This document shows, one piece after another, positions 1,164 to 60,895 of a DNA stretch of 64,000 nucleotides (the stretch's first letter is position 1; each line of letters opens with the position of its first letter). The stretch lies in NCBI GenBank assembly GCA_964393375.1, contig CAYMTM010000001.1, positions 258 through 64,257 on the forward strand, given 5' to 3'. The stretch comes from an uncultured Rhodospirillaceae bacterium. Lineage in GTDB: Bacteria > Pseudomonadota > Alphaproteobacteria > JAEULC01. Position numbers and translations under genes: made by a program. The notes below the pieces were generated by a model. The model had not been told where the DNA came from. It ran no database searches and saw nothing but the letters and a program-made list of their open reading frames with translations.

Positions 1164-2774
1164 ATGACCCACGGGATGGTGGTCGCGCCGCAGCCGGAAG
1201 CCGTCGAGGCGGGCTGCGAGATGCTGATGCGCGGGGGCAACGCGGTCGATGCGGCGATCGGCTGCGCGCTGGTGCAGGGCGTCGTCGATCCGCTGATGAC
1301 GGGCATCGCAGGCTTCGGCAGCCTGCAGGTCTATCTGCCGGGCAAGAAGGTCCATACCTGCATCGACTTCCACGGCAAGGTGCCCGGTGCGGCCAGGCCC
1401 GACATGTGGGCGCATCTGATCGAAGGCGAGGCGCGCGACGGGTTCGGCTTCATCCTCAAGGGCCATGTCAACGATGCCGGCTACCAGTCGATCACCGTGC
1501 CGGGCAGCCTGAAAGCCTACGCGGAGGCGCATGGCGAATGGGGCGCGCTGCCCTGGCGCGAGGTGATGGCGCCGGCGATCGCCTGGGCCGAGAACGGCTG
1601 GATCATGCGGCCCGAGGTGTTCCGCTTCATGTTCCAGCGCGAGAACATGGGCCGCGTCGAGAGCGACGAGCGGATCAGGATGTCCGCCACCGGGCGGCGC
1701 CTGTTCGTCGACGAGAAGGGCGAGATCAGACGCCCCGGCTCGAAGATCAAGAACCCGGACATGGCGGCCACGCTGCGCCAGATCGCCGAGCAGGGCGTGG
1801 ACGCGTTCTATACCGGCGAGATCGCGCGCAAGATAGCCGCCGACATGAAAAAGAACGGTGGGCTGCTGAGCTACGAAGACCTGGCGACTTACAAGACCAA
1901 ACGCAACGATCCGCTCCGCGGCAGCTACCAGTCCTGGAACCTTGCGACCAACCGGCCGCCGGGCGGCGGGATCATGCTGGTCGAGATGCTGAACATACTG
2001 GAGAATTTCGACCTTGCGGCGCTGGGGCACAACACGCCGGAATACATCCGCGTGGTATGCGAGGCGATGAAGCGAGCCACCGTCGACAAGGACCAATATG
2101 TCGGCGATCCGGACTTCTTTCCCGTGCCGGTCGATCGCCTCACCGACAAGGAATACGCCCGCACGGCGGCCGAGGCGATCAAGCGCGGCGAGAAGGTGAC
2201 GGTCCCGCGTCTGCAGCAGAAGAAGGAAGCGGCCGACACGACCCATGTCTCGACGGTCGACGAGCACGGAAACTGCGTGACCATGACGCATTCCCTCGGC
2301 ATGCCTTCGGGCGTCATCACCGACGGGCTCGGCTTCATGTACAACGGCTGCATGGGCGTATTCGACCCGCGCCCTGGGCGCGCCGGTTCGATCGCGCCGG
2401 GCAAGAGCCGGTTCAGCTCGGTCTGCCCGACCATCGTGTTCGAGAAGGACCGCCCCCATATCGCCATCGGCGCGCCGGGCGGCACGCAGATCGCGATGGG
2501 CGTCTTGCAGGCGATCCTGAACGCGCTGGATTTCAAGATGACCATGGCCGAGGCGGTCGCGGCGCCGCGCTTTTCGTCCACGAGCGACGCGATCGACGTC
2601 AGCAACCGCATCCCGCACTTCGTGACGCGCGCGCTGGAGAAGATGGGCTACGAGGTGATCCGCAGCCATTACAGCTATGCTTTCGCCGCGGTGCACGGGA
2701 TCATGATCGGCGCGGACGGCGCCTTGAGCGGCGGCGCGGATCCCGGCCGCGACGGCATGGCGCTGGCGGTCTAG
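1164..2774 (+). CDS. ggt: gamma-glutamyltransferase
   Basis: 536 aa. Strong SD GGGAGGGA 5 nt upstream of the ATG. GGT family hallmarks are present: an N-terminal AP(Q)PEA..GGNAVDAA segment and the autoprocessing threonine region TTHVSTVDEHGN. Length and C-terminal motifs fit Ntn-hydrolase GGT. Confidence 0.9.
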   Translation: MTHGMVVAPQPEAVEAGCEMLMRGGNAVDAAIGCALVQGVVDPLMTGIAGFGSLQVYLPGKKVHTCIDFHGKVPGAARPDMWAHLIEGEARDGFGFILKGHVNDAGYQSITVPGSLKAYAEAHGEWGALPWREVMAPAIAWAENGWIMRPEVFRFMFQRENMGRVESDERIRMSATGRRLFVDEKGEIRRPGSKIKNPDMAATLRQIAEQGVDAFYTGEIARKIAADMKKNGGLLSYEDLATYKTKRNDPLRGSYQSWNLATNRPPGGGIMLVEMLNILENFDLAALGHNTPEYIRVVCEAMKRATVDKDQYVGDPDFFPVPVDRLTDKEYARTAAEAIKRGEKVTVPRLQQKKEAADTTHVSTVDEHGNCVTMTHSLGMPSGVITDGLGFMYNGCMGVFDPRPGRAGSIAPGKSRFSSVCPTIVFEKDRPHIAIGAPGGTQIAMGVLQAILNALDFKMTMAEAVAAPRFSSTSDAIDVSNRIPHFVTRALEKMGYEVIRSHYSYAFAAVHGIMIGADGALSGGADPGRDGMALAV

Positions 2775-2775
2775 C

Positions 2776-3573
2776 TCAGGCCGCGGACGTGGCCCGCAGC
2801 GTGCGGTCGGAAGCGACGATGTCGCCGAGCTGGCGCATGAAGTCGCGGTAATACGCCGTCGTGTAATGGAAGGGCTCCAGGCTCCACTTGTGCCCGGCGT
2901 CGCCCAACCGATACTCGGGCCTGGGGCGGATGGTTCGAATCGCCGCTGAATCCGCTTCGATCCTGGCATAGTAGGTCGACAGGACCTCGTTGATCGCGTG
3001 GATTTCGTCGCGGTTCGGGAACTGGACGACCTTTTCCTCGCCGTCGAGGAAGCATTCCGACCACAGCGCTTCGTGCAGGATGGTGCGCTCGGGCGGCACG
3101 ATCGTCCCGAGCCGCCGCATGAAGCGGGGTATGTTCGAAAGCGTCGCCTCCACGACGCGTGGATCGAGCGCGCCGCGCCGTTCGAACCGGCTGGTGTCGA
3201 TGCCGTGGGCCTGGGCCGTGCGCACGAAAGGCACCGAATAGCACAGGCAGGTCTCGCCGGAGACCAGGATCGAGTGGCGCTCGTCGATCAGGTCGACAAG
3301 CAGGTAGTCGAATTCGTGCTGGGCGAGGGTGTCGAATTGCAGCTTCAGCAGGTCGATGGCGACACAACGCTCCTCGAAGGGGCGCCGCTCGACCGTCGGT
3401 GCGATCCGGTCGATCGGCGGCGCCGGTGACAGGCTCGAGTTGATCGTCGTGCGGGCGAGGTAGACCGCGATCGTCCATTCGCCCCGCGGTTCCCCCGATA
3501 GCTCGAACGCATCGCGGGTAACGCAACTTCCGAAGATGCCGAACCGCAAGGCGTTTGCCCCCTTTTTCGTCAT
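2776..3573 (-). CDS. hypothetical protein, DUF6270-like (GSCVxRD N-terminal motif); likely polysaccharide-cluster accessory enzyme
   Basis: 265 aa. The N-terminus MTKKGANALRFGIFGSCVTRDAF resembles the DUF6270 family seen next to glycosyltransferase clusters. It is divergent from the multi-GT gene and shares an AT-rich promoter region with it. Family recalled from memory. Confidence 0.5.
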   Translation of the reverse strand: MTKKGANALRFGIFGSCVTRDAFELSGEPRGEWTIAVYLARTTINSSLSPAPPIDRIAPTVERRPFEERCVAIDLLKLQFDTLAQHEFDYLLVDLIDERHSILVSGETCLCYSVPFVRTAQAHGIDTSRFERRGALDPRVVEATLSNIPRFMRRLGTIVPPERTILHEALWSECFLDGEEKVVQFPNRDEIHAINEVLSTYYARIEADSAAIRTIRPRPEYRLGDAGHKWSLEPFHYTTAYYRDFMRQLGDIVASDRTLRATSAA

Positions 3574-3682
3574 TGCGGCGCCCGGGACCTGGACACCATG
3601 GACAGGTTTATATTGACCTTTATTAAGGGACCGTTAGCCATTCGCGCGTTAGAAAAAGCTCGGCGCAAATGGAGCGAGTTAG

Positions 3683-6600
3683 ATGATAAACTCCTATATT
3701 TTTAAGGACCTTATGACCACACCTCAAACTCTTCATTTGCGCGGCGTCTGTCCTCAATTCGGTGTATTTACGCTTAATTTTATTGATGAGAACGGACTGC
3801 AGCCGCTTCACATGGCCTTCCGGGTCAGCGTCGGCCATATCGCGCTGAACGACAATCTCAAGGGCCATTGGGGTGAGGAACTTGTCATCGACAACGTCGA
3901 GTTCCCGATGGGCCTGCCGTTCGAGATCAGCATCGAACTCCTGGGCCGTCAGCGCATTCGGCTCTCGATGGACGGCTCCGTGCTCGGCGAGTTCCCCTGG
4001 CGCCATGACATCGCGGCGGCAGTACGATTGGACATGGTGGACGTCGAGTTCAGCCTGTTCCGCAACGACACCAGCTTCAAGACCCTTCCCGAGAACGTGA
4101 TTGCGCCCGAAGAAGAGGCAGCGGAGCCGGGGCAGGCGGCGGCGCGGTTCGAGGACGGTTCGGATCAATTAGCGCGGCATTTGCGCGAATTGCGCGCCGA
4201 TTACATGCAGGGGCTCGAACGGCTGGAGAACCGGATCGAGGGGATTTCGGAGGAGCTGCGCGCGCTGCAGAAGGTCGCCTCCGGCATCGCCGCCAGCGTG
4301 CAGGCCCTCATCGCGCTTGACGTGCGCGCGGTGGAATCCGCGCAGCGCCCTGCCGGCGCACCGCGGATCGCGCCGCCGCAGGCATCGCCGCGCGGACTTG
4401 TGGTGGAGGACAAGTTCGTCAAGGGTTGGGGCGACTGGCGTCACCACCAGAAAGTCAAGCTTTCCGACCTGGGCCTGTTCCAGGTGCAGCAGGAGCGCAG
4501 CACGCCCGGCATCGAGCGCAAGGCGCTCGCCGTGGAGCCGGGGTCCTATTACGAGTTCTCGGTGACGGGAAACTTCAAGGTCGCCAATCGCGAACTGTTC
4601 ATCGCCGCCTACGACCCGGACAACGATCTGACGCTGACCGCCGCCCGTTATGCCGAGAAGGAGTCGGGCACCGTCACCGAGACTTTCATGACCACCGCGC
4701 GCACCAAGCGGGTGATCCTGCGCGTCATGGTCGACCAGCCGAAGATCGGCGACGAATGCCGTCTGGAAAGCGCAAGCCTGACCCTGCTTGGGCGCGCCGA
4801 CCTCTACGCGCCGGCGCGCGCGGGAGAAGCGCAGCCAGAGGAGGGCATCTGCGCGTCGATGGCGTCGGTCGCCGGGCGCGAGGCCATGGTGGTCGACGCG
4901 GTGCTGAGCCTCTATCCCTTCGTCGACAAGGTGCGCGTGTACCTCAACAACTATTCCAGCGTGCCCGAGGGCCTGAAGCTGCCGCGCGTCGAGATCGTGC
5001 GGTCGCAGCAATACGGCGACAACGGCGACGCAGGCAAGTTCTTCTGGGTAGAGGACAAGCAATATCCGTTGAATCTGGTCTGCGACGACGACCTGATCTT
5101 TCCGCCGGACTACGTGCCGCAGATGGTTGCCGCGCTCAAGCGGTGCGGGAACAAGGCGGTCGTCGGCATCCACGGGGTGCTGTTGAAGCAACCCTCGCCG
5201 TCCTATTACGACGAGAGGTTCCGCCATGTGCGCCGCTATCCGCACGCCAACCGCGAGGACTGCCAGGTCCATGTGCTGGGCACGGGTGCGGTGCTCTACG
5301 ATCGGCGCACGCTGAAGCTCGAATGGCGCGACTTCCAGTACCGCAACATGGCCGATATATGGCTCATGGAGCAGTGCCAGAAGCAGGGCATTCCGTCGAT
5401 CTGCATCGCCCGGCCGCGCAATTGGGTGATCCAGAACCAGGTCAAGGGCGGCGTGCCTACCATCTATGACGCCTCGCACGGCCGGCAGGGCAACGGCTTC
5501 GACACCGGCGCGGTCCAGACCTATGTGGTCAACAAGAACTGGCCGGTGACACTGAAGCCAACGGTCGTCAACGGCCAACGCCGGCCGAAGGTCGTCCTGT
5601 CGATCACGACCTGGAACCGGTGCGACTACCTGAAGGAATGCATCGAATCGTTCGAGCGTACGCGCTCCACCAGGTACGATTGGGTGCTGATCGTGGCGGA
5701 CGACGGTTCGACCGACGGGACGCTCGCCTATCTCGACCAGCTCGTCCTGCCGCACGAGGTTCACGTCATCCGCAACAAGGGGCGCTATGCCTGCGGACAG
5801 ACGAATACGATTTTCGATTTGTGCCGGAAGATCGGCTTCGACTTCGCCTTCAAGATCGACGACGACATCCTGTTTAAGAAGCGCGGCTGGGACACGCTCT
5901 ATATCGAGGCCGCAGCCGCCAGCGGTTACGACCATCTCTGCCACCGGAATTGGAAGCACTTCACGGGGTTGAAGCGCCGCAACAACCCCAACTACTCGCC
6001 GCCGCCGCCGCATATCGACGCGTCGGGAAAGTGCGAGACGATCGTCGGGGTGTGGGAGTGCGACGGGTGCCTGTTCACCTTCACGCCGACGATGATCGAA
6101 AAGGTGGGTTATTGCGACGAGGCCAATTTCCCGATCCGCGGCCAGTGGCATATCGACTACTCGATCCGGGCCTGCCGTGCCGGCTTCAACGACGCCAAGC
6201 ACTTCTACGACGCGCGCGACAGCAACGCCTATATCGAACTGCAGGCCAACAAGCCGACCTATCGCTGCTCGCTGCCCTGGGGCGACGCGTACAAGAAGAC
6301 CAAGGAACCGGCGGAGCTCGAGCGCCGCGAGCGGGTGATGCGCGACGAGAGCCGTGTCTACGTGGCGCCGGTGAGCGCGCCGGCGCCGCTGCGGCGGCCG
6401 TTGCGGGCGGCGACGTTCTTCGACAAGGTCTACGTGCTGAACCTCGACCGCCGGCCCGATCGGCTGGCGACGGTCAGTGCGCATCTGAAGCGCCTGGGCA
6501 TTCCGTTCGAGCGCTATGCGGCAGTGGACGGCCGCGCCAAGCCGCATATCGACGAGTGGAGCGTCTATCAAAAGCAGCCCCTCGTAACCGCCCCCGAGGG

Positions 6601-7306
6601 CGTACGCAAGCTGACGCGGTCCAAGGACTTCTACCAGAACTACGACAGCCACGTGGCCCGCGTCGCGTTCATGGAGGGCCAGCTGAAGGCCAAGGCGATC
6701 CGTACACCCGGCGCCTGGGGCTACTTGAAGAGCTATATCGGCATCCTCGAAACGGCGCTGAAGGCCGGGTACGAGTCGATCCTCGTGCTGGACGATGACG
6801 CGCTGTTCCACCGCGACTTCGACGCGCTGTTCCAGGCTGCGGCCAAGGAACTTCCGCCGGATTGGGCGATCTTCCAGCTCGGCGCCCTGCAATACGATTG
6901 GGGCGACCAGTGGATCGCCAAGTATTCCGAGCACCTCTATATGTGCAACGGCTCGAGCGTCGGCTCGCATGCCACCGGCATCCGGCGCAGCGTGCTGCCC
7001 GCCCTGCTGCACGAGGCACAGCGCTTCGACATGCCGCTCGACGTCGGTGCGCTGTGCCGGGTCAAGCGGGCCTTTGCGGAGCGCAGCTTCACCGTCCTGC
7101 CGAACTTGGTCATCCAGGACACCAGCGAGAGCGACATCGCGTCCTCCGATGTCCAGCAGGCCGAGGGGATGAAGAAGACGAATATCTATCGCTGGAAGCT
7201 GGAAGACTATCCGGGCGCGATCGTGGAAGCGGACGCCAGGCAGCGCAACCCGCGCCGTCCGGCCGCCAAGCAGGCGCAAGCGGCCGCCATGACGGGTACG
7301 GACTGA
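3683..7306 (+). CDS. 1207-aa multidomain glycosyltransferase: N-terminal galectin-like lectin domain, coiled coil, beta-sandwich, then three GT domains (GT-A with DDD motif, GT2-like, GT25)
   Basis: SD GGAGCGAG before the ATG.
- aa ~40-110: LHMAFRVSVGHIALNDN..GHWGEEL..FPMGLPFEISIEL parallels the galectin CRD motifs HFNPRF / VCN / WGxEE / FPF..F.I.I.
- aa ~150-215: heptad-rich coiled coil.
- aa ~400-600: GT-A fold with LVCDDDLIFPPDY.
- aa ~635-900: SITTWNRCDYLKECIESF..LIVADDGSTDGT (GT2-like).
- aa ~915-1150: FFDKVYVLNLDRRPDRL (the GT25 LPS/LOS galactosyltransferase signature).
The first ~120 nt of the coding region is AT-rich. Confidence 0.8.
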   Translation: MINSYIFKDLMTTPQTLHLRGVCPQFGVFTLNFIDENGLQPLHMAFRVSVGHIALNDNLKGHWGEELVIDNVEFPMGLPFEISIELLGRQRIRLSMDGSVLGEFPWRHDIAAAVRLDMVDVEFSLFRNDTSFKTLPENVIAPEEEAAEPGQAAARFEDGSDQLARHLRELRADYMQGLERLENRIEGISEELRALQKVASGIAASVQALIALDVRAVESAQRPAGAPRIAPPQASPRGLVVEDKFVKGWGDWRHHQKVKLSDLGLFQVQQERSTPGIERKALAVEPGSYYEFSVTGNFKVANRELFIAAYDPDNDLTLTAARYAEKESGTVTETFMTTARTKRVILRVMVDQPKIGDECRLESASLTLLGRADLYAPARAGEAQPEEGICASMASVAGREAMVVDAVLSLYPFVDKVRVYLNNYSSVPEGLKLPRVEIVRSQQYGDNGDAGKFFWVEDKQYPLNLVCDDDLIFPPDYVPQMVAALKRCGNKAVVGIHGVLLKQPSPSYYDERFRHVRRYPHANREDCQVHVLGTGAVLYDRRTLKLEWRDFQYRNMADIWLMEQCQKQGIPSICIARPRNWVIQNQVKGGVPTIYDASHGRQGNGFDTGAVQTYVVNKNWPVTLKPTVVNGQRRPKVVLSITTWNRCDYLKECIESFERTRSTRYDWVLIVADDGSTDGTLAYLDQLVLPHEVHVIRNKGRYACGQTNTIFDLCRKIGFDFAFKIDDDILFKKRGWDTLYIEAAAASGYDHLCHRNWKHFTGLKRRNNPNYSPPPPHIDASGKCETIVGVWECDGCLFTFTPTMIEKVGYCDEANFPIRGQWHIDYSIRACRAGFNDAKHFYDARDSNAYIELQANKPTYRCSLPWGDAYKKTKEPAELERRERVMRDESRVYVAPVSAPAPLRRPLRAATFFDKVYVLNLDRRPDRLATVSAHLKRLGIPFERYAAVDGRAKPHIDEWSVYQKQPLVTAPEGVRKLTRSKDFYQNYDSHVARVAFMEGQLKAKAIRTPGAWGYLKSYIGILETALKAGYESILVLDDDALFHRDFDALFQAAAKELPPDWAIFQLGALQYDWGDQWIAKYSEHLYMCNGSSVGSHATGIRRSVLPALLHEAQRFDMPLDVGALCRVKRAFAERSFTVLPNLVIQDTSESDIASSDVQQAEGMKKTNIYRWKLEDYPGAIVEADARQRNPRRPAAKQAQAAAMTGTD

Positions 7307-7376
7307 CCGCAGGGCGCCGGGACGCGGCCGAGTGCCGCCCAGCGGCGCCCGATCCGGGGCGGGAACGGAGACCCAC

Positions 7377-9989
7377 GTGATCCCCCGAATCCTTCATTAT
7401 GTCTGGGTCGGCGGTCGGCCGCTGCCGGAGAAATCCAGGATCAATATCGAGACCTGGAAGCGGTTCTGCCCGGATTTCGAGATCCGGGCCTGGACCGACG
7501 ACAACGTCGCCTTCGACCGGCCATACCTGGCGCGCTGCCGGGCGCTCGGCCACTGGGCCAACGCGTCGAACTACTTGCGGCTGGAGAAGCTGCTGGAGCA
7601 CGGCGGAGTCTACCTGGACGTCGATATCATGATGCGCCGGACGTTGGCACCTATGCTGCGAAATCGCTGTTTCCTGGGATTCCAGGTCGAGGCCCAGGAG
7701 AACGACTGGGTCAACAATGCGGTCTTCGGCGCCGAGCCCGCCCACTGGTTCGTTGCGCTGTGCCGCGACCGCCTGCTGGCTGAATTCGACGGCGCCGAGC
7801 CGGCGAACCACTCCTCGCCCCGATTGGTGACAAGGCTCCTGCTCGAGCAAGGATTGACCCGCTATCGCCCGGGCGGCGTAATGGTGCGGGACGTCCGTGT
7901 CTATCCGCAGCCGGTATTCTATCCCTACTCGTGGAAGGAGGAGTTCACGCTGGGGGCGATCAGGCCGGAGACGGCGACGGTGCATTTCTGGGAGAAATCC
8001 TGGCACATTGATGCGGCTGCCCGACCGGTCGGCGACGAGGAATTGCGTGCGCGGCTGGCGAGGCTCGAGATCGCGCATCATCGCCTGATCCGCGACGCCG
8101 TGCTGGCGGTCGCGCCGCGGCCCGAGGGTCGGTGGTCGTGGGCGGGACTTCGCTATTGGTTCCAGCGCCTGGGCCGTCCCCGCCGGCACGCGGTCAGGCC
8201 GCTGCTACTGGCGGGCGCGACGTCCTTGTGGGCGTTGCTTGCGTCGCCGGTTCTCGCGGCAGCCGCTTGCGGCCTTTCTTTCGACGATGCCGGCTTGCGC
8301 GCAGGCCCGGTGGTAACCGGCGGGGCGACGGTCAGGCGGGTGGGGTGCGCATCCGACGCCGCCTCTACCCATCATTGTATCGCCATCGTGCTGGAAAGCG
8401 GCGATCGTGCGTCCGTGGCGCGCTTTACCGCCGCCGCCCCGCGGCCGTACCGGCTTTGGCTGCGGGTAGGCACCGATGCGCGGTCGGGCAAGATGCGGCT
8501 GGGACTCAACGACGGCCCGGTGCGCGACTGGTTCGTTCCGCCGACGCAGGCCGGTAACTGGCAGCTTGTTACGCTGCCGGACGGTAGGACGCCCGCGATG
8601 TTCGATCTCAAACCGGGCGAGAACAGCCTGCGTATCGAGCCGCCGACCGATGGCAGGACCGTCGCGGCGGCGGATTGCGCCGTATTGTCGGCCGACCCGC
8701 ATTTCATCCCCACCTTCACGGCCGTGCACGAGCTCGACCGCGCCTGGTCGGGCGTCGGCGTGCTGTTCGACGCCTTGGCCGACGAGCGCAACGTCTATGT
8801 CGGCTATTACAATGCCGAGCGGATGCTGTCGGCGGCATCGTTCGATCGCGACACCAGATCGTGGCGCCGCGTGCCGCTGGCCAGCCGGTTCGAGGGCTGG
8901 GACAACCACAACGCCATCGCTCTGGCGCTCGACAAGGCGGGCAATCTGCATGTCGCCGGCAACATGCATGCCTCGCCGCTGGTCTATGCCCGCACGGCCG
9001 AGCCGCGCCGCCTGGAAACGTTGCAGCTGCTCAACCGCATGGTCGGGTCGGACGAGGCCAGGACGACCTATCCGACCTGGGTGGCGATGCCCGATGGCGG
9101 CTTGGCCTTCATCTATCGCTCGGGCGTTAGCGGGACAGGGCAGCACGTCATCGACGTCCTGGTCGACGGCCAGTGGCGCCGGCAAGGCGACGCGGCGCTG
9201 TTCGGCCAGGCTTCCGGCGGCTTCAGCGCCTATCCGACCGATCCGCTGCGCGGACCGGATGGCCGGCTGCACATGGCCTGGGTTTGGCGGCGGACGTCGG
9301 AGGCGCAGACGACCTTCCAGGTTTCCTATGCGCGCAGCCGGGACTTGGTTCACTGGGAAGACGCGGCCGGCAAGCCGCTCCAGTTGCCGCTGCGGCCGGG
9401 GCCGATGGGCGTGGTCGACAACGTGCCGGAGCGGGCGGGCCTGGCCAACCAGGTGGTCCTTGGGTTCGACGCCGAGGGCCGGCCGATCGTCTCCTACCTG
9501 AAGTTCGACGCCAAGGGCGCGACACAGCTCTACAACGCGCGGCCGACGGCCGCGGGGTCCTGGCAGATCGTCCAGACCAGCGACTGGCAGGACCGTTGGG
9601 AATTCGAAGGCCGCGGCACGATCCAGGCGCTGGTCCGCCTCGAGGCGGCGGCAGTGGACGATGCCGGGGCGCTGGTCCAGGGGGTGCGGCACTGGCGCGC
9701 CGGTCGGTTCGAGTTCGTGCTCGATCCCGGAACGCTGCGGCCCGTGGCGGCGCGTCCGCCCAAGCGCATGCTGCCCTGGGTGCTGACCCAGCCGAGCACG
9801 GACGAGCCCGGCTTCTTCGCGATTGCGATCCCGGTCCGCGACGCGCGGGCCGCCGGCAAGCCGACCGGCTTCGTCCTGCGCTGGGAGGCGCAGAACAGCG
9901 ACCGCGACGCAATGCCTGCCTGCACGCCGCAGCGCCCGCGCGCCTGCGACCCGCCGCCGTCGCTGTTGACGGTGTTGGAGAAACGATGA
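7377..9989 (+). CDS. glycosyltransferase (sugar-binding DXD-region family, GT32/Gly_transf_sug-like) fused via a TM segment to a C-terminal BNR_4-like beta-propeller domain
   Basis: GTG 7377 has SD GGAGA 7 nt upstream; ATG 7332 is an in-frame alternative. The N-terminus has ILHYVWVGG..P and YLDVDIMM (DXD), typical of the sugar-binding DXD GT family. A hydrophobic stretch LLAGATSLWALLASPVLAAAA follows at aa ~280-305. The C-terminal ~550 aa carries repeated His/Trp-rich blades (NLHVAGNMHASPLVY, RLHMAWVWRRT) resembling BNR_4-type propellers. The propeller assignment is tentative. Confidence 0.65.
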   Translation: MIPRILHYVWVGGRPLPEKSRINIETWKRFCPDFEIRAWTDDNVAFDRPYLARCRALGHWANASNYLRLEKLLEHGGVYLDVDIMMRRTLAPMLRNRCFLGFQVEAQENDWVNNAVFGAEPAHWFVALCRDRLLAEFDGAEPANHSSPRLVTRLLLEQGLTRYRPGGVMVRDVRVYPQPVFYPYSWKEEFTLGAIRPETATVHFWEKSWHIDAAARPVGDEELRARLARLEIAHHRLIRDAVLAVAPRPEGRWSWAGLRYWFQRLGRPRRHAVRPLLLAGATSLWALLASPVLAAAACGLSFDDAGLRAGPVVTGGATVRRVGCASDAASTHHCIAIVLESGDRASVARFTAAAPRPYRLWLRVGTDARSGKMRLGLNDGPVRDWFVPPTQAGNWQLVTLPDGRTPAMFDLKPGENSLRIEPPTDGRTVAAADCAVLSADPHFIPTFTAVHELDRAWSGVGVLFDALADERNVYVGYYNAERMLSAASFDRDTRSWRRVPLASRFEGWDNHNAIALALDKAGNLHVAGNMHASPLVYARTAEPRRLETLQLLNRMVGSDEARTTYPTWVAMPDGGLAFIYRSGVSGTGQHVIDVLVDGQWRRQGDAALFGQASGGFSAYPTDPLRGPDGRLHMAWVWRRTSEAQTTFQVSYARSRDLVHWEDAAGKPLQLPLRPGPMGVVDNVPERAGLANQVVLGFDAEGRPIVSYLKFDAKGATQLYNARPTAAGSWQIVQTSDWQDRWEFEGRGTIQALVRLEAAAVDDAGALVQGVRHWRAGRFEFVLDPGTLRPVAARPPKRMLPWVLTQPSTDEPGFFAIAIPVRDARAAGKPTGFVLRWEAQNSDRDAMPACTPQRPRACDPPPSLLTVLEKR

Positions 9990-10831
9990 CCGAGCCGCGC
10001 AAGTTCGACGGGGTGGGCGGTCGCCTCGTCGTACTGGCGGTCACGACGTTCAACCGCCGCGACTATCTGCGCGAATGCCTGGAATCCTGGGCGGCGACGC
10101 GCAACCCCGCCTATCGCTGGCTGGTCGTCGTCGCGGACGACGGCTCGACCGACGGCACGCTGAATTATCTCGAAAAGCCCGACATCCCGGCAGATTGCCA
10201 TCTGATCCGCAATGTCCGACGCGGCGCAGGCGGCCAGACAAACACGATCTTCCAGCTCTGCCGCCGGCTGGACTACGCCATCGGCTTCAAGATCGACGAC
10301 GACCTGGTCTTCAAGCGGAAGGGCTGGGACGACCTTTACATCAATGCCGTTCGCAGGAGCGGCTACGAGCATCTCTGCCACCTGAATCTGCGGCTGTTCA
10401 ACGCCGAGCGTCGCCCGCCGGTGCCGCTCTCGGCGGGCAGGCCGCTGGCCCTCGACCCGTCGGGGAGCTGCGCCGCCTACACCGACGTATACAACTGCAT
10501 GGGCTGCCTGTTCACTTTCACCCCCAGGCTGCTCGCGGCGGTTGGCAATGTCGATGAGTCCAACTTCCCGATCCGCGGCGACTGGCATATCGACTATTCG
10601 GCCCGCGCGGCACGCGCCGGCTTCAACCGCGTCGACACGTTCTTCGACGCCCGCGACAGCGGCCGCTATATCGACATCCAGAACAACCTGAAAAGCGTCT
10701 ATCAGCATACGATCGCGCCGCACAGCGCGCAGATGCGCGCCGTCTCCAGCCCCGCCGAGATCGAACGCCGGCGCAAGGTGGTGCGTGACGAGACCCGCGT
10801 CTTCGTGGAGATGGCAAAAAAGGCGGGCTGA
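9986..10831 (+). CDS. GT2-like glycosyltransferase, paralogue of the middle domain of the 1207-aa protein
   Basis: Its ATG overlaps the upstream stop as ATGA at 9986-9989. The 281-aa product (VVLAVTTFNRRDYLRECLESW..VVVADDGSTDGTL..FKIDDDLVFKRKGWD..CMGCLFTFTP..NFPIRGDWHIDYS) aligns residue-for-residue, at roughly 50-55 % identity, with aa ~635-900 of ORF 3683..7306. The longer 9173 start in the track is an off-frame extension. Confidence 0.75.
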   Translation: MTEPRKFDGVGGRLVVLAVTTFNRRDYLRECLESWAATRNPAYRWLVVVADDGSTDGTLNYLEKPDIPADCHLIRNVRRGAGGQTNTIFQLCRRLDYAIGFKIDDDLVFKRKGWDDLYINAVRRSGYEHLCHLNLRLFNAERRPPVPLSAGRPLALDPSGSCAAYTDVYNCMGCLFTFTPRLLAAVGNVDESNFPIRGDWHIDYSARAARAGFNRVDTFFDARDSGRYIDIQNNLKSVYQHTIAPHSAQMRAVSSPAEIERRRKVVRDETRVFVEMAKKAG

Positions 10832-10873
10832 GCCCCTATAATGCCGGCAGCGAAGCCCGGGAGGAGGGCGGCA

Positions 10874-11290
10874 ATGCCGGTGATTTATGTGGCAAGGAGC
10901 TTGTTGCTGCAGAAGTGGAGCGCCGAGGTGGGGCTCGGCAAGCACGTCTACAAGGTCGGGATCGGCGAGGGCAAGGCAGCCGAGATCGAAGCGGCGCTCA
11001 ATGCGCAGAGCCTGGCCGGAATGACTGACTGGAAGGCATTGAAAGTGCAGAAGCTCGATGAACCGGTCGACGAGGCCGCCGCGCTCGCCCGGCTGGCCGG
11101 GCGCGAGAAGGAGATCGACCCCAATTTCTATCCCCGGATCCGGGGCGCACGCGGCATCTTCAAGGTGAAGGTCGAGAACGTCGCCAATTCATTGCTGGTG
11201 CAGCAGGCGCTCGGCACCGGCGAGCTGAAGATCGACAAGGTGAAACCCGCCGATATAGCCGCCTACCTGATCCGCAACGCAATCGAGTAG
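10874..11290 (+). CDS. small hypothetical protein (possible GIY-YIG/T5orf172-like N-terminal motif)
   Basis: 138 aa from ATG 10874, preceded by SD GGGAGGAGGG. The N-terminus PVIYVARS...HVYKVGIGEG loosely resembles T5orf172/GIY-YIG openings. No confident family assignment. The 10841 ATG is an in-frame alternative. Confidence 0.45.
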   Translation: MPVIYVARSLLLQKWSAEVGLGKHVYKVGIGEGKAAEIEAALNAQSLAGMTDWKALKVQKLDEPVDEAAALARLAGREKEIDPNFYPRIRGARGIFKVKVENVANSLLVQQALGTGELKIDKVKPADIAAYLIRNAIE

Positions 11291-11295
11291 ACGGG

Positions 11296-12258
11296 CTATG
11301 ATCCCGGAAAATGACAGGCCGCGGCCTGGGGCCCGGTCGCGCGCAAGCCGGGCTCTTGCGCTGCGCAGATCGCCTGCGCCTTGGGACAGCGCGTCCGGAA
11401 GCGGCAGCCCGATGGCAGGTTGCCCGGATCGGGCGGCTCGCCCTCCAGCCAGAAATCCCGGGTGACGCGGGCGCCGCCGATCTTGGGGATCGCGGCCAGC
11501 AGCGAACGTGTATAGGGATGCTGCGGCCGGTCGAAGATCGCCTCGACCGGACCGGTCTCGACGATCCTGCCCAGGTACATCACCGCCACGCGCCGGCACA
11601 TCATGCGCACGACCGCAAGGTCGTGGCTGATCAGGATGTAGGTGAGGCTGAATATGCGCCGGAGGTCGGCGAACAGGTTCAGCACCGTCGCCTGCACCGA
11701 GACGTCGAGACCGGAGGTCGGCTCGTCGAGGATCACCACCTTGGGCTGCAGCGTCAGGATGCGTGCCAGGCCGACACGCCGCTGCTGGCCGCCGCTGATC
11801 TCGTGCGGGTAGAGGTCGAGATGCGTCGCGGGCAAGCCGACCGCGGCCATGATCTCGCGCACCCGCGCCTCGCGCGCCGCGGCCGAAAGGTCGGTGTGGA
11901 TGACGAGCGGCTCATGCAACGACGAACGGATTTTCCAGCGCGGGTCGAGCGAGGTGCCAGGGTCCTGGTAGGCGTATTGCAGGTGTCGGCGCAGAGCACG
12001 GCTCTTGCTCGGCTTGACCCCGGCGATCTCGGCGCCCTCGAAGCGGATGCTGCCGGCGTCGGGCTGATGGATGCCCATGATCGTCTTGCCGAGCGTCGAC
12101 TTGCCGCAGCCGCTTTCGCCAACCAGGCCGATGATCTCTCCCGGCATCAGGTCGAACGAGACGTCGTCCAGCGCCTTGATCCAGCCGATGCGCCGGTTGA
12201 AGGCGCCCCGGATGGGGAAGTAGCGGCGCAACCCGCGAATGCTGAGGATCGGTTCCAT
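11296..12258 (-). CDS. ABC transporter ATP-binding protein (oligopeptide/dipeptide DppF/OppF type)
   Basis: Walker A GESGCGKST, signature LSGGQQQRV, Walker B ILDEPTS, and a C-terminal oligopeptide-type extension with Cys residues. Start at MEPILS, 5 nt after the upstream ATPase stop (translational coupling). Confidence 0.85.
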   Translation of the reverse strand: MEPILSIRGLRRYFPIRGAFNRRIGWIKALDDVSFDLMPGEIIGLVGESGCGKSTLGKTIMGIHQPDAGSIRFEGAEIAGVKPSKSRALRRHLQYAYQDPGTSLDPRWKIRSSLHEPLVIHTDLSAAAREARVREIMAAVGLPATHLDLYPHEISGGQQRRVGLARILTLQPKVVILDEPTSGLDVSVQATVLNLFADLRRIFSLTYILISHDLAVVRMMCRRVAVMYLGRIVETGPVEAIFDRPQHPYTRSLLAAIPKIGGARVTRDFWLEGEPPDPGNLPSGCRFRTRCPKAQAICAAQEPGLRATGPQAAACHFPGS

Positions 12259-29211: not shown

Positions 29212-29796
29212 ATGCGCTGCCTCGTCGTCTATGCGCACCCTGTCGCGGAGAGCTACTGCGCGGCGCTGTGCGACCGCGCCGTTGGCGCTTTGAAGGAAGC
29301 AGGGCATGAGGTGCGGCTGGTCGACCTCTATGCCGAAGGCTTCGCGCCTGCGCTGTCGCGGGCCGAGCGCTTGACCTATCACACGCCTGGGGACAACGAG
29401 CAGACGGTCCGCGACCACATCGACCACATCAAGTGGGCCGAAGCCCTGATCTTCGTCTATCCGACCTGGTGGTACGGGCTGCCGGCGATGCTCAAGGGCT
29501 GGTTCGACCGTGTGTGGGTGCCTTTCGTCACCTTCACGCTGCCGAAGCAGGGACCGATCCGCGGCCTGATGGGCAATATCGTCCGGCTGGTGGTTATCAC
29601 GACCGCGGGTTCGCCCCGCCTGTGGTTAACGTTGATGGGCAATCCCGGACGGCATACGATCATGCGCGGGGTGCGTGCTTTGTGCCATCGCCGCTGCCGG
29701 CGCATATGGCTGGCGCATTACCGCATCGACCATTCGACCCCGGAAAGCCGCGCGGCGTTTCTCGACCGCGTCGCAAGGCGATTGAGGCGGCTCTAG
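29212..29796 (+). CDS. flavodoxin-like fold NAD(P)H:quinone oxidoreductase-type protein
   Basis: ATG 29212 (MRCLVVYAHPVAESYCAAL...). The motif YAHP...LIFVYPTWWYGLPAMLKGWFDRV is typical of the Flavodoxin_2 / NQO1-like family. Confidence 0.7.
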   Translation: MRCLVVYAHPVAESYCAALCDRAVGALKEAGHEVRLVDLYAEGFAPALSRAERLTYHTPGDNEQTVRDHIDHIKWAEALIFVYPTWWYGLPAMLKGWFDRVWVPFVTFTLPKQGPIRGLMGNIVRLVVITTAGSPRLWLTLMGNPGRHTIMRGVRALCHRRCRRIWLAHYRIDHSTPESRAAFLDRVARRLRRL

Positions 29797-30863
29797 CCGA
29801 GATCGAGACGCAGGAAATCGAAGAAGGCGTAGCTCTCCATCAGACGGTCGGGATCGATCTTGAGGAAACTTGCGGCCGGCAGCGGGGAAGAGGTGTCCCC
29901 CTGCGCTTTGATCGGCGGCGGGCCTTTGGCGAGTCCGCCCAGCAGATCATGGGGGCTGCTCTGCGAGGCGGCTTGGACATGCACTGGCCCGCAAGCAAAG
30001 GGCGCGTAACCATGCGCCTGGAACCGATGCCGGATCCAGTCACGGCTGTTGAGACGTTCCTCGCCCAGGTTCTGATACAGGAACAGGCCTACATCCGAGT
30101 CCTCGAGGACCAGCTTGGCGAGATGAATCAGGTAGCGCGCGGCGAACGGGTCCATCTCGCCCATCGCCGCATCGCAAACCACGACGTCCGCCTTGATGGG
30201 CGTCGATCGAAACAGCTCGGCGAAATGCCACCACGGGATCAGTGCGGCGCGTCCGGGAGGGAATGCGGCCGGCGGCGTGTCGGAGACGGCATAGTCCGTC
30301 AGATCGCCGCGCGCGATCCAGCGAAACAGGCGGTGCTGCCAAAGATACAACGCCTGGGTATTGTCGATCCCGACATAGCGATGGCCGCGCAGGAGACAAT
30401 AGGCGCCGAGGAACCCCGAGCCGGGTCCGACCTCGAGGACGCGCAGCCGGCGCCCGCGATGCGCGGCCGCGGCCTCGATCAGCCGGAGGATCGGCAGGGG
30501 CGGGAACAGGCACATCAGCGGCTGGACCGGCCGCCGGAAGAGTCTTGCCGTGAGCGTCTCGACCTCGCCCCGCAGAGTCAGGATGGCGTCCTGTTCGGCC
30601 CGCGACCATTCCAGGCGATTCAGCCAGTGGTCGCGGTCGAGGAGCTCGTACATGATGTCCGCGTAGCGGCGTAGCTCCGATTCCTGTGACACCTGCGTTG
30701 GGAAACCCACTTGCGCGAACGCAACGGGCGCGAACGACCGGATTGCGGGATAGGTCGCGCGTGCACGGGCGGCCGCCTGGCGGCGGTCGTACTCCTCGAT
30801 CGACAGGACGGGCAGCGCGGCATCGCTGGGCGGCGCAAGCGTTGCGAAAGGGTCCGGTGTCAT
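29793..30863 (-). CDS. class I SAM-dependent methyltransferase
   Basis: 357 aa from ATG 30863 (MTPDPFATL...). Motif I is LEVGPGSGFLGAY. The ATGA overlap with the upstream MT stop indicates coupling. The 729-aa ORF in the track fuses this gene with antisense junk. Confidence 0.7.
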   Translation of the reverse strand: MTPDPFATLAPPSDAALPVLSIEEYDRRQAAARARATYPAIRSFAPVAFAQVGFPTQVSQESELRRYADIMYELLDRDHWLNRLEWSRAEQDAILTLRGEVETLTARLFRRPVQPLMCLFPPLPILRLIEAAAAHRGRRLRVLEVGPGSGFLGAYCLLRGHRYVGIDNTQALYLWQHRLFRWIARGDLTDYAVSDTPPAAFPPGRAALIPWWHFAELFRSTPIKADVVVCDAAMGEMDPFAARYLIHLAKLVLEDSDVGLFLYQNLGEERLNSRDWIRHRFQAHGYAPFACGPVHVQAASQSSPHDLLGGLAKGPPPIKAQGDTSSPLPAASFLKIDPDRLMESYAFFDFLRLDLG

Positions 30864-31891
30864 CGCATGCCGACGGTTCTGGCCGCGCGGCCGAGCACGC
30901 GCCGCCACAGGGGACGGCGACGCGCAACGGGCGTCGGCATGGGGGTGGGAGGCGGCGGACGCCGTGCCGCGCCATCGAGCGGCGCAACGCCTTCCATCCG
31001 CTGGATCGGGGCGCGCAGCTTTTGCTCGCGCATCGGCTTGGCCAGGGCGACAAACATAAGATCGAACACGAAGCAAAGATGATGCCGCTCGGCCGGATAG
31101 GTGGCGTCGCCGGCGTCCCCGGGCGATAGGGATTCGAGGACCGCCCGTGTCTCGCCCGATAAGATGTTGGCGTGAAACCGGCGGACGACCTTCGTCATGA
31201 ACGTCTGCGTGTCTTCCATGTCGTGAAGCTGAATCGGCAGCCCGTCGAATTCGAACCGGCACGGCGGTCGCTCGGCTTGCAGCTTCTCGCGCACGAACAT
31301 GTTGTCGACATAGGAGAAGTCGAGCAGGCGATAGCCGTTGGCGCGGGCGAACTCGACGAACAGGTTGGGATTCGGCGTATAGAAACCGTGATTGGAAAAA
31401 GCAAAGGCCGGCACCACATGGAGCGCGACGCCGCCCGGCTTCAGCAGCGCATGCATGGTCTCGAAGACCCGCGCGATGTCGTAGACATGTTCTGCGGTGC
31501 CGAAGTCGGTAACGATGTCGAACTGGGGCAAGCCCTCGGCCGCGCGGTTGAGGTCGAGCTTGTAGGTGGCGCGATCGTCGTCCAGATCGGCGGAGCAGTA
31601 CTTCTCGACACCGAACAGCGCATAGTAGGCGGCCTGCCCGTCGCGTCGCGGCGTTTGCCCGTCGTACACCGCGGCGGCACCTACGGCGGCCGCGCCGCCC
31701 AGCGCCTGCTGCGCACGCGCCTCGAGATAGGCGCGCGGCACTTGGATGTCCTGCGGCCCAAGGTCGATCAGGCTGGCGCCGGCCGGCAGGAAACTCCGCC
31801 CATGCAGGCGGAACATCCACTCGGTATGCACGCATCCTATGGCCATGAACGCCGGTTCCGGCTGGTTGGCGCCGATTGACCGGCCTTGCAT
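30860..31891 (-). CDS. class I SAM-dependent methyltransferase (Methyltransf_11/12/23-like)
   Basis: Conserved DIVTDFGTAEHV / LLKPGGVALHVVP core. It has a low-complexity Pro/Arg tail. The start is uncertain (ATG 31891 or 31846); I chose 31891 to avoid overlap with the FkbM gene, which ends at 31948. Confidence 0.6.
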   Translation of the reverse strand: MQGRSIGANQPEPAFMAIGCVHTEWMFRLHGRSFLPAGASLIDLGPQDIQVPRAYLEARAQQALGGAAAVGAAAVYDGQTPRRDGQAAYYALFGVEKYCSADLDDDRATYKLDLNRAAEGLPQFDIVTDFGTAEHVYDIARVFETMHALLKPGGVALHVVPAFAFSNHGFYTPNPNLFVEFARANGYRLLDFSYVDNMFVREKLQAERPPCRFEFDGLPIQLHDMEDTQTFMTKVVRRFHANILSGETRAVLESLSPGDAGDATYPAERHHLCFVFDLMFVALAKPMREQKLRAPIQRMEGVAPLDGAARRPPPPTPMPTPVARRRPLWRRVLGRAARTVGMR

Positions 31892-31947
31892 ACAAGGCGG
31901 TCCAGCAGCGGTCAACGGCAGGTCGGTGGCGGGATGTCCGCGCAGGT

Positions 31948-33753
31948 TCAGAAGGTCGAGCTGCCGCGCACCGGCGCCGCATCGCCGCGGTAAAGAGCCG
32001 CGGCCGTATCGACGGCAGCCGTCAACGCGGCGGCTTGCGCCTGATCGCCGGCGGCGCGGAGGCGGGCGGCAAGCCATTGGCTGACTTCGAACGCGAATTC
32101 CACCTGCCCGAAGACTTCGGCGATCACTGCAAGCTTGATGGTTTGGTTCGTGTCAAGGGCCGTGAGCCCGCTGCTGCCGTCCGCGTCGACGGGATCACGC
32201 AAATACAGCGAATGCCCCTCGATCAGTTGGCCCCAGCTCGACACGAGTTGGCCCAGGCGGCCCACGAAGCCCGGCAAATGCTGGACGACGACCGGCGCCG
32301 CGGCACGCCCGACATAGTGATGGGCGACCAGGTCGAAGAAGGTGAATCCGGCGCGACGCAGGAAGGCGTCGATGTCGGAGAAGAACGGCCGCGCGAGATA
32401 GGATTCGACGAAGGCGGTCTCGGCCAGCACGCCCAGCATCCCGTCGAGGCATGGGCCGGCGGCTGCCAGAATGTCCAGCTCGGCACCTTGCACGTTGAGC
32501 TTGCAGAAATCGATCGCGGGGACGCCGGCGGATGCGGCCCATCGCGCGATCGAGGTGACCGGCATGTCCACGGTGCGCTCGGGCCGGAAAATCTCGCGCG
32601 CAAGCGACGTTTGGTGCGGGTTCTCGAACCGCCACCGGTCCGTGACCTTTGTGTTCTGATCGAGAAACGAACTGCCGCCGCTTGCCTTGTTGACGTGAAA
32701 GGGCAGCCTGCCGTCGTCCTTCCAAAGGCCGACCGGATAGTAGGCGCCCTGATAGCCGAGGTCGCGCAGGGTGCGGTTGAGGCGCTCGCATTCCGGCGGG
32801 TCCGGCTCGAAGCCGTGGAAGGAAAGGCGGTCCGCCGGCAGCTCGCGCCAGCGCGGATCGGCATGGGCGTCGCGCGCGCCTCCATCGAGCACGACAATCC
32901 GTTCGCCGCGCGGCAGCATTGCCAGGAGTCCCGGCGCAAGGCGCAGCCGCGGCTCCGGCTGGCGCGTTGGCGCGGCAGGGTTAGCCGTCCCGGCGCCGTC
33001 GGCCTCTCCAGCTCCGTCCAGATAGCTCGCCACTTGCCGCGCGATCTCGCCGATGTTGCGGCTGCCCGTCTGCTGGCGCGCCAGGTGGACCACGGCTGCC
33101 CATCCGCCCTCGTTGGAGGGATCGCGGCGCAAGAGGCCCTGGAAGACCCGCGCGGAGTCGGCGAAGCGGCCCAAATGGGCAAGCACCTGGCCCAGCGTGG
33201 CGCGCGCCGTGAGGTTGGCGGGATCGAGCGCGATCGCTTCCTCGAAGGCGGCAAGCGCGTCGTCGTAGCGCCCAAGCCGGGCATGGATGCTGCCGAGCTG
33301 AAACCAGGTATCGGCGCGGCGCGGCGCGAGCGCGCTTGCCACCCGGGCAAGGCGCTCGGCCTCGGCGGGATGGCCGGCATCGACGGCAGCGACGGCCGCC
33401 CCGAGAGCCGCGTCCGGATCGGAGACGCGCTCGATCAACGCCGAGAGTTCCGCCGCGCGCCCCGCCCTTACCAGCGATCCAAGCAGTTCCGTCTGCGCGA
33501 GCCGGCCCGCGCCGCGGCCAAGCCCATCCTGCAAGGCAGCGATTTTGAGCGGCAGTCCGCCGTGCACTTCCAGGAACCTGCCGAGGGCGGCCCAGGATTC
33601 ATCCGAGTCCGGCACGAGGCGCACGGCACGCGCATAGGCCCACTGTGCGTCGTGGAAACGACCGCGCCGGGCCAGGTAGGTCGCTTGCAGGCGCCCCAAC
33701 AGCCCAAACCGATGGCGGGCCGCGGAGACAAGCCGTTTCAGGTGCTGCTTCAT
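31948..33753 (-). CDS. TPR-repeat protein fused to an FkbM-family methyltransferase domain
   Basis: N-terminal TPR-like Ala/Leu repeats (AEAERLARVASALAPRRADTWFQLGSIHARLGRYDDALAAFEEAIALDP). The C-terminus has the FkbM signature (FHGFEPDP...IDFCKLNVQGAELDIL). The start at ATG 33753 is uncertain because there is no clear SD. Confidence 0.7.
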   Translation of the reverse strand: MKQHLKRLVSAARHRFGLLGRLQATYLARRGRFHDAQWAYARAVRLVPDSDESWAALGRFLEVHGGLPLKIAALQDGLGRGAGRLAQTELLGSLVRAGRAAELSALIERVSDPDAALGAAVAAVDAGHPAEAERLARVASALAPRRADTWFQLGSIHARLGRYDDALAAFEEAIALDPANLTARATLGQVLAHLGRFADSARVFQGLLRRDPSNEGGWAAVVHLARQQTGSRNIGEIARQVASYLDGAGEADGAGTANPAAPTRQPEPRLRLAPGLLAMLPRGERIVVLDGGARDAHADPRWRELPADRLSFHGFEPDPPECERLNRTLRDLGYQGAYYPVGLWKDDGRLPFHVNKASGGSSFLDQNTKVTDRWRFENPHQTSLAREIFRPERTVDMPVTSIARWAASAGVPAIDFCKLNVQGAELDILAAAGPCLDGMLGVLAETAFVESYLARPFFSDIDAFLRRAGFTFFDLVAHHYVGRAAAPVVVQHLPGFVGRLGQLVSSWGQLIEGHSLYLRDPVDADGSSGLTALDTNQTIKLAVIAEVFGQVEFAFEVSQWLAARLRAAGDQAQAAALTAAVDTAAALYRGDAAPVRGSSTF

Positions 33754-34083
33754 CCGAGCGATCGAACTTGCGGAGGGGCGAAGGGCCGCAGAGTAGCGGG
33801 TTTCTGTTCGCGCGAGTAGGCCCCTTCGCCACGCGACCGGAGGCCCGGTGCACCCGGTTGCCCGCATGGCGCAGCCAGCGCGGCGCGAGCCGTGCGGGCC
33901 AAGCGTGACAGTCGGCATCGCGATAGATATATAGGGCCGTCGCTGAGCGTCCATGACGGCGAAGGGCGAAACCGGAGTAGGGGCTAGGACAACCAGTCCG
34001 AAGACTGCTTTGGCGCAATCTGGCTACTCCTGAAGACGTGACAGATAAAGAGGGGCGCGTGGTCCAATGCGCCAGGAGCGATT

Positions 34084-57246: not shown

Positions 57247-57287
57247 GAACTCATACCTCTTGGATCCGGAACCGGCGCGCCGGCCGG

Positions 57288-60549: not shown

Positions 60550-60895
60550 GTCGCGCTGTGGGCGCGAGGCGCCGCGCGCGTCCCGCCGGGCGGCACCGTC
60601 GACCAATCCGGTTGCTCCAATTGCGCCCCCGCAGGGGATTCCTCACGGGCTGGGACAAGCCGTCCGGCGATGATCGAGGCGCGCCAGGGCCGCGACGAGG
60701 CGGTTGAGCCGCGACCGTTGACAAAGTGGGCCGAAATCGCTTGTTATCAACACCTTAGAGCCAACGCTCGGGCTAGGCGGCGGCTCTTTGCCATTTCTTA
60801 ATGTGAGCCAAATCACGGGCTTGACCGCCGCACTGTGGTAGTCTGTCCGGCGTGAAATGTATTTCGCGCGGGCAACCGCGCGGGCGAGGTCGGCC

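Follow-up and report, generated by a model that had tools for sequence, protein, structure and literature searches.

Lectin modules and carbohydrate-binding modules (CBMs) on glycan-handling enzymes are already known, as are coiled-coil assembly proteins that combine several glycosyltransferase (GT) modules. Plant GT31 galactosyltransferases carry a galectin domain, and animal ppGalNAc-transferases a ricin-type lectin domain. In O-antigen synthesis that depends on an ATP-binding cassette (ABC) transporter, only terminated chains are recognised, by a CBM on the transporter, and to our knowledge all known systems of this type use a chemical terminator (methyl, phosphate or Kdo). Galectins, as far as we know, are regarded as eukaryotic lectins, with a few viral ones, that read finished glycans. 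The present analysis concerns a gene at positions 3683–7306 (+ strand) of a 64,000-nucleotide stretch of an uncultured Rhodospirillaceae bacterium (the window; assembly GCA_964393375.1, contig CAYMTM010000001.1). The 1207-residue product consists of a galectin domain, a coiled coil, a CBM-like module and three GT modules of families GT45, GT2 and GT25. Literature searches turned up no report of bacterial galectin-like domains that take part in making polysaccharides, and a galectin in a glycan-assembly role in bacteria would be new according to the searchable literature.

Plant GT31 enzymes and ppGalNAc-transferases share with this protein the design of an in-chain lectin that reads an existing glycan and directs further glycosylation. 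They differ in being type-II membrane proteins of the Golgi that have a single catalytic domain, lack a coiled coil and belong to other GT families, and no homology to the window protein was seen beyond the galectin fold. In layout, WbbB (Klebsiella O12 / Raoultella terrigena) and WbdD-WbdA (Escherichia coli O9a) also compare with the window protein, since they join an N-terminal module, a coiled coil and several GT modules in a single polypeptide or tight complex that is cytoplasmic and has no transmembrane segment; homology in sequence to WbbB or WbdD was neither seen nor looked for. The coiled-coil O-antigen assembly strategy is marked by a coiled-coil protein that bears the terminator at the far end (PMC11231755). 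Relatives of the core of the window protein do carry a methyltransferase and a coiled coil beside ABC-2 genes. In the window protein, by contrast, the distal module is a non-catalytic galectin and not a terminating enzyme, the coiled coil of 56 residues is short beside the prototypes and flanked by flexible linkers, and the catalytic modules are GT45, GT2 and GT25 in place of GT99/102/103 or GT4. Galectin-type gene cassettes also lack Wzm/Wzt genes nearby.

Architecture of the fused protein

The window DNA is rich in GC (63–71%), and the open reading frame (ORF) that runs from the ATG at 3683 to the stop at 7306 has a GC content at third codon positions (GC3) of 0.86 on the + strand. An antisense ORF (4169–7279, 1036 residues) was dismissed as a shadow ORF of high-GC DNA, the GC3-based choice favouring the + strand. 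For P0001, a protein of identical sequence, a JGI gene call places the start at Met11. The start at 3683 is preferred, since 13 of the 14 homologues keep residues 1–10 and the AlphaFold2 model has its first β-strand there. An earlier note on this DNA, made from the sequence alone, had the gene begin at 3590, which falls in the intergenic region upstream. The motifs that it quoted are all found at their places in the 1207-residue protein: LHMAFRV (residues 42–48), IALN (53–56), GHWGEE (61–66), FPMGLPFEISI (74–84), CDDD (467–470), ADDGSTDGT (672–680) and YVLNLDRRPDRL (917–928). The architecture that it had proposed, a galectin-type lectin, a coiled coil, a second β-sandwich and three GT modules in one polypeptide, was borne out by the domain matches and by a family of 14 proteins. 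A hydropathy scan of the whole protein revealed neither signal peptide nor transmembrane segment (highest 19-residue hydropathy 1.4), and the protein is therefore expected to be cytoplasmic or peripheral. An assembly chimera was ruled out by the occurrence of the same architecture in 14 independent assemblies (metagenome or metagenome-assembled genome (MAG) proteins), and eukaryotic contamination by the GC content of 63–70%, the bacterial operon neighbours and the overlapping start and stop codons.

The galectin carbohydrate-recognition domain occupies residues 1–130 (3683–4072; this and the following modules are on the + strand). It matches Pfam PF00337 (Gal-bind_lectin) with 30.6 bits against a curated cut-off of 22.1 (E = 2.7e-7). 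As a single sequence against the PDB, it matches the galectin domains of 2wsu, a 'putative fiber protein' (E = 2e-9) that we take to be the fibre head of porcine adenovirus (NADC-1), and galectin-4 (E = 2e-6). A profile of the 14 homologues reaches E = 3e-17 and retrieves 149 galectin chains at E ≤ 0.01. Modelled with AlphaFold2 for comparison with galectins, as the earlier note had suggested, the domain forms an all-β sandwich (predicted local distance difference test score pLDDT 86, predicted template modelling score pTM 0.80). The top 50 PDB matches of this model in Foldseek are galectins only, with template modelling (TM) scores of 0.71–0.82 and a probability of 1.0, at just 17–26% identity to the solved structures. 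Pfam, PDB profile and fold evidence agree, and the N-terminal domain is a genuine galectin fold with a similarity far beyond chance.

The binding site was compared with the canonical galectin signature H-x-N-x-R … V-x-N … W-G-x-E-x-R. Five of its seven sugar-contact residues are invariant in 14 of 14 homologues, namely H43, R47, N56, W63 and E66, which correspond to the His, first Arg, second Asn, Trp and Glu of the canonical set. The position of the first Asn is occupied by Ala in 10 homologues and Ser in four; the Asn-to-Ala replacement remarked upon earlier for the HFNPR motif is Ala45 of the window protein. A Ser at this position is also present in one solved nematode galectin, according to the alignment of the profile with the PDB. 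The last Arg is retained in three homologues, replaced by His in four and by an aliphatic residue or Thr in seven (Val68 in the window protein). The mean pairwise identity of the galectin domain is 58%, compared to 73–81% for the catalytic modules; the contact residues stand out as selected because they are invariant within so variable a domain. W106, R107, D109, R115 and D117 are invariant as well, and lie outside the canonical seven-residue signature. Animal, fungal and viral galectins (galectin-4, galectin-7, GRIFIN, nematode tandem galectins, 2wsu) have the same fold (TM ~0.8) and the same motif order (H..R / N / W-G-x-E), whereas the domain described here is bacterial, cytoplasmic and fused or adjacent to GTs, with Ala or Ser for the Asn of H-x-N-x-R and a variable last Arg.

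The galectin is connected to the remainder of the protein by a coiled-coil stalk (residues 159–214; 4157–4324) set between an acidic, Pro/Ala-rich linker (residues 131–158; 4073–4156) and a second Pro/Ala-rich linker (residues 215–240; 4325–4402). The coiled coil, which the earlier note had proposed, comprises, as judged by heptad inspection, at least five clean heptads, with L, I, V or A at all a and d positions across residues 178–212, and ends with a conserved GIAASVQALI motif. It is exactly 56 residues long in 14 of 14 homologues, without indels, at a mean pairwise identity of 47%. The bounding linkers are rich in indels, the first varying from 24 to 39 residues and the second from 24 to 38. 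A fixed length at this level of identity between such linkers appears to be the behaviour of a spacer. The fibre of porcine adenovirus NADC-1 likewise displays galectin domains at the tip of an oligomeric stalk.

The following module (residues 241–375; 4403–4807) is a β-jelly roll, which accounts for the second β-sandwich of the earlier note. Its fold is common to CBM4/16/22/29, and it is described as CBM4/CBM22-like at the level of the fold only. Residues 236–385 have no Pfam match and a PDB sequence search gave nothing meaningful, so that the module is called CBM-like and not placed in a CBM family. A homology search with its alignment returned solely a 114-residue fragment.

The first catalytic module (residues 390–600; 4850–5482) belongs to GT45 and is homologous to the N-acetylglucosamine (GlcNAc) transferase domain of the Pasteurella heparosan synthases (PmHS1/2, C-domain) and to KfiA of E. 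coli K5. A profile search of the PDB returned 8vh7 (E = 1.7e-32) and KfiA 5z8b (E = 4.2e-23), with the invariant CDDD (467–470) aligned to CDDD. KfiA is the α-UDP-GlcNAc transferase of heparosan synthesis (PMC2811250). The module is probably a KfiA-like, retaining α-N-acetylhexosamine (HexNAc) transferase, as judged by homology. The earlier note was right that it is a real and intact module, but the generic label 'DDD-motif GT-A' gives way to GT45, the KfiA-type α-GlcNAc transferase family. In PmHS, GT45 and GT2 are also joined in one chain; the order is reversed in the window protein, where GT45 precedes GT2, and a GT25 and two binding modules are added. The window locus differs from those of E. 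coli K5 and PmHS in being devoid of kps/kfi capsule export genes.

The GT2 module (residues 635–900; 5585–6382) matches Pfam PF00535 with 73.8 bits (cut-off 23.3, E = 2e-20), and contains invariant DDG (673–675) and DDD (726–728) motifs. Among solved structures, its closest relative is one of the GT2 domains of chondroitin synthase (2z86/2z87, residues ~373–459 of the chain, E = 5e-7). The GT25 module (residues 912–1176; 6416–7210), with an invariant DDD (1037–1039), matches PF01755 with 42.4 bits (cut-off 24); no solved structure in the PDB was matched by sequence. Both assignments of the earlier note thus pass the Pfam cut-offs. PF01755 and the DDD are shared with the GT25 transferases of lipooligosaccharide (LOS) synthesis (LgtB, LgtE, Lic2A, LpsA) and with animal collagen galactosyltransferases, which form β-galactose (Gal) or β-glucose (Glc) linkages, the kind of epitope bound by galectins. 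The module is probably an inverting β-Gal/Glc transferase resembling the LOS enzymes, although here it is the last module of a 1207-residue fusion. The DXD-type motifs of the GT45, GT2 and GT25 modules, the lack of which the earlier note had thought conceivable, are all invariant over the 14 homologues.

The family and its galectin-free relatives

The complete architecture is found in 14 full-length proteins with 59–100% identity, a range given as 59–86% for the 14 homologues over which the motifs and contact residues were compared. All originate from metagenomes or MAGs, whose labels read Alphaproteobacteria, Rhodospirillales, Rhodospirillaceae or Rhizobiaceae, and are annotated as 'glycosyltransferase' only. 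An exhaustive search of 1.84 billion representative proteins with a hidden Markov model of the galectin profile yielded 361 matches at E ≤ 1e-3. The matches that were looked up are animal galectins (eels, cyprinids, mites). Prokaryote-type matches are few, and comprise the cluster of the fused family, some close free-standing forms or fragments, and two free-standing forms that are more distant, namely P0060 and P0045/P0195, the latter being a cluster of 78 metagenome sequences. The fused architecture is a single 50%-identity cluster among these representatives; it is rare and well conserved, and the fusion had fairly been called very unusual.

The free-standing bacterial galectins all have about 200 residues and consist of a galectin and a short C-terminal coiled coil. 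H43, N56, W63 and E66 are invariant in them too, down to 23% identity, and Arg47 is lost in the distant P0195. Every bacterial galectin that can be placed falls in a GT-rich locus. In two loci (L003 6064–6726 and L025 10001–10666), a free-standing gene for a galectin and coiled coil of 220 residues lies directly upstream of the fused gene, and its coiled coil is closed by a conserved I-A-V-x-x-Q-A-L motif. As the motif at the end of the coiled coil is shared with the big protein, this suggests that the paralogues may form hetero-oligomers with it. The P0060 gene sits between GT2-methyltransferase, GT2 and GT4-GT2 genes.

The gene of P0195 is divergently adjacent to that of a 1032-residue homologue of the core (L021 5921–9019, − strand), with 35% identity to residues 282–1176 of the window protein (E = 2e-164). 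This homologue retains the DDD motifs of GT45 and GT25 and has lost the DDG and DDD motifs of the middle GT2 module. A heparosan-type GT45+GT2 co-polymerase is disfavoured on this ground, as the conserved catalytic pair seems to be GT45 and GT25. Lectin and core thus share one chain in some lineages and are encoded by separate neighbouring genes elsewhere, the textbook mark of a functional partnership, and by this Rosetta-stone argument the lectin is functionally tied to the CBM-GT45-GT25 core. The galectin and coiled coil together appear to be an exchangeable N-terminal accessory.

Other relatives of the core have no galectin. P0015 consists of an FkbM methyltransferase and a coiled coil of ~140 residues, followed by CBM-like, GT45, GT2 and GT25 modules; its gene comes immediately after ABC2_membrane and ABC_tran genes and genes of large multi-GT proteins. 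A 1626-residue protein of MAG LQ108M_Bin_12 (locus L014) starts with an FkbM methyltransferase and continues with a coiled coil and the same core, and its gene is preceded by ABC2_membrane, ABC_tran and two GT4 genes. In a relative from a cyanobacterium (Dapis), the head is of TPR type, and the gene is surrounded by GT4, sulfotransferase, FkbM, acetyltransferase and methyltransferase genes. The ABC2_membrane and ABC_tran genes are predicted to encode a Wzm/Wzt-type ABC transporter. Together with the FkbM and coiled-coil heads, they indicate that the core belongs to a family used in an ABC-transporter-dependent pathway. An FkbM domain with a longer coiled coil is the layout of the chain-terminating 'ruler' proteins of ABC-transporter-dependent O-antigen synthesis. 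In the galectin sub-family, the lectin occupies the position of the terminator.

The gene cassette and the rest of the window

The big gene is the first of a conserved cassette of three. The second gene (7377–9989, + strand) encodes a GT32-type DXD glycosyltransferase, with a region like Gb3 synthase (α-1,4-Gal transferase), and a BNR_4 (GH145/PL42-like) propeller. The third (9986–10831, + strand) encodes a GT2 of 281 residues, and its start overlaps the upstream stop by 4 nucleotides. The GT32 part adjoins the big gene in six of six galectin-type synteny patterns (seven contigs), five of which also have the GT2 partner gene. Among PDB entries, the propeller matches 5muk, a Bacteroides protein deposited as 'Neuraminidase' (E = 1e-31), and the L-Rha-α-1,4-GlcA lyase 7esl (E = 3e-8); proteins of the 5muk type are presumably GH145 rhamnosidases, and 7esl is taken to be PL42. 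The joining of a transferase to a seven-bladed, hydrolase- or lyase-like propeller in the cytoplasm is an odd pairing. It is seen again in locus L020, and in L018 and L019 a stand-alone BNR_4 fragment comes after the cassette.

Two further genes are close to the cassette. An ORF of 138 residues without family match (10874–11290, + strand) is confined to the two closest loci and therefore probably not part of its core, and the same probably holds for the DUF6270 gene divergent from the big gene (2776–3573, − strand), seen in this locus alone among those examined. The flanks of the cassette differ in every contig, and include peptide ABC transporters, γ-glutamyltranspeptidase, xanthine dehydrogenase and, once, a phage-type integrase. 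The latter case is L020 (2922–4205, − strand), from a Rhodospirillales MAG, where the cassette adjoins the integrase and a DUF5906 gene. This hints at horizontal movement of the three-gene cassette, which would fit the differing neighbourhoods. A promoter and terminator scan over 2700–11500 gave no informative signal.

A second glycan-related group is located at 31948–36638 of the window. It consists of a TPR and FkbM methyltransferase protein (31948–33954, − strand), a UDP-glucose/GDP-mannose dehydrogenase (34084–35403, + strand) and a GT4 glycosyltransferase (35400–36638, + strand); a dehydrogenase of the same family is also found at ~55924–57816 (− strand). A giant RTX nonapeptide-repeat (calcium-binding) protein of 2545 residues is encoded at 36781–44418 (− strand; 14 matched stretches, E = 2e-129), and is likely a secreted adhesin or S-layer-type protein. 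An 858-residue protein (60857–63433, + strand) combines TPR, glucodextranase-B-like and caspase-family (Peptidase_C14) domains, and a 342-residue protein (51066–52094, + strand) is a WD40 propeller. The ~2.5 kb at 29433–31982 hold ORFs of 729 (− strand) and 413 (+ strand) residues that have no Pfam match and failed the GC3 filter. The ABC systems found among the ORFs scanned across the window are of peptide, NMT1 and zinc types only.

Proposed role in glycan assembly

The window protein most likely helps build a surface polysaccharide. The earlier note had proposed an LOS-like core or a protein or S-layer glycan as the target; the FkbM and ABC-transporter context of the relatives instead points to a pathway for a polymer of O-antigen or exopolysaccharide type. 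It is considered about evenly balanced whether the protein is a multi-module glycan-assembly enzyme built in the coiled-coil, O-antigen-like manner, in which the lectin replaces the terminator and binds the enzyme's own product or acceptor. In such an enzyme, the three GT-A modules would cooperate in the cytoplasm with the GT32 and GT2 encoded downstream, and would assemble an oligo- or polysaccharide at the membrane's inner face, on an acceptor linked to a lipid. GT45 would add an α-HexNAc and GT25 a β-Gal or β-Glc, while the GT2 module and the partner GT32 and GT2 would add more residues or branches. The CBM-like jelly roll may keep the chain near the active sites. The galectin, on an oligomerising coiled-coil stalk, would most likely bind a β-galactoside-type epitope of the product or acceptor, and so tether, oligomerise or position the enzyme on the glycan; chain-length sensing or chain hand-over are alternatives. 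Tethering is the idea of the earlier note, by which the enzyme could be self-primed and processive. A bolder and improbable version is that the galectin is a non-enzymatic reader that captures a β-galactoside epitope at a set distance, and thereby stops or hands over the chain.

Several observations weigh against the proposal of an O-antigen-like assembly enzyme with a lectin in place of the terminator. Genes for Wzm/Wzt, Wzx/Wzy, an initiating phosphoglycosyl transferase or an exporter of another kind were found neither beside any galectin-type cassette nor among the ORFs scanned across the 64-kb window. The two canonical galectin residues that are gone (the Asn, now Ala or Ser, and the variable last Arg) are a further point, because of which classical binding of N-acetyllactosamine is not assured. 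A rigid ruler is disfavoured because the coiled coil is short (~8 nm) and has flexible linkers of variable length on both sides. Jelly rolls of Eph receptors and Cry toxins match residues 241–375 too, the CBM call being at fold level only, and donor sugars, linkages and acceptor are presumed from the behaviour of the CAZy families only.

Because no exporter gene lies near the galectin-type cassettes, LOS-core and protein-glycosylation targets keep their standing. The cassette might add single residues one after another to a short, non-repeating oligosaccharide, such as the outer core of lipopolysaccharide or LOS or some other head group of a glycolipid; lectin and CBM-like module would then merely select the partly built acceptor, and export could proceed through general machinery such as MsbA, with no need of a dedicated transporter. 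A cassette made up of GTs only, which counts five GT modules and lacks an exporter in each of six different neighbourhoods, would suit this explanation. Characterised bacterial GT25 members are indeed LOS β-Gal/Glc transferases, and the Gb3-synthase region of the GT32 partner recalls the Gal-α-1,4-Gal-β epitopes of LOS. It is nevertheless judged unlikely, as the galectin-free relatives have methyltransferase and coiled-coil heads and belong to polysaccharide loci with ABC transporters, known LOS transferases have neither a coiled-coil stalk nor two binding modules, and GT45 is so far known to us only from polymerases (heparosan). Cytoplasmic glycosylation of a protein, for example a secreted adhesin, S-layer or RTX protein, is held to be very unlikely. 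There, sites that already bear a glycan would be glycosylated further under the guidance of the lectin and CBM-like modules, as in the animal ppGalNAc-transferases (GT27), which offer a lectin-guided precedent. Lipid-carrier or export genes were not found nearby in the loci examined, and the 2545-residue RTX-repeat protein is encoded 30 kb away in the window. The RTX gene is, however, unlinked to the cassette in all other loci, the relatives occupy polysaccharide and ABC-transporter loci, and the cassette has no conserved neighbour that could be the acceptor protein.

A different doubt concerns the galectin itself, which may have lost sugar binding and serve in protein–protein contacts or oligomerisation, like galectin-related proteins without lectin activity; only the triple-GT fusion would then remain of interest. 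The equivalent of Asn46 is Ala or Ser in all members, that of Arg73 is an Arg in only three of 14, and Arg47 is also lost in the distant P0195, while the invariant W106, R107, D109, R115 and D117 lie elsewhere than in the canonical signature. On the other hand, H43, R47, N56, W63 and E66 have remained invariant despite a mean pairwise identity of 58%, and the His, Asn, Trp and Glu down to 23% identity. The solved nematode galectin has a Ser at the Asn position too, and all placeable bacterial galectins are in GT-rich loci. The loss of lectin function is thus regarded as quite unlikely.

A bona fide galectin is here built into, or encoded beside, the machinery by which bacteria make glycans. 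The window galectin bears on how the galectin fold originated, and the compact set of GT45, GT2 and GT25 modules could serve glycoengineering. If the lectin binds the enzyme's own product, the protein would be a bacterial counterpart of the lectin-guided glycosylation of ppGalNAc-transferases and plant galectin-GT31 enzymes. If it acts at the position of the terminator, capture by a lectin would replace the chemical terminator, which could be a new means, free of any chemical cap, to control how long a polysaccharide grows or when it is handed over. The family would then represent a prokaryotic lineage of intracellular galectins devoted to glycan biosynthesis.

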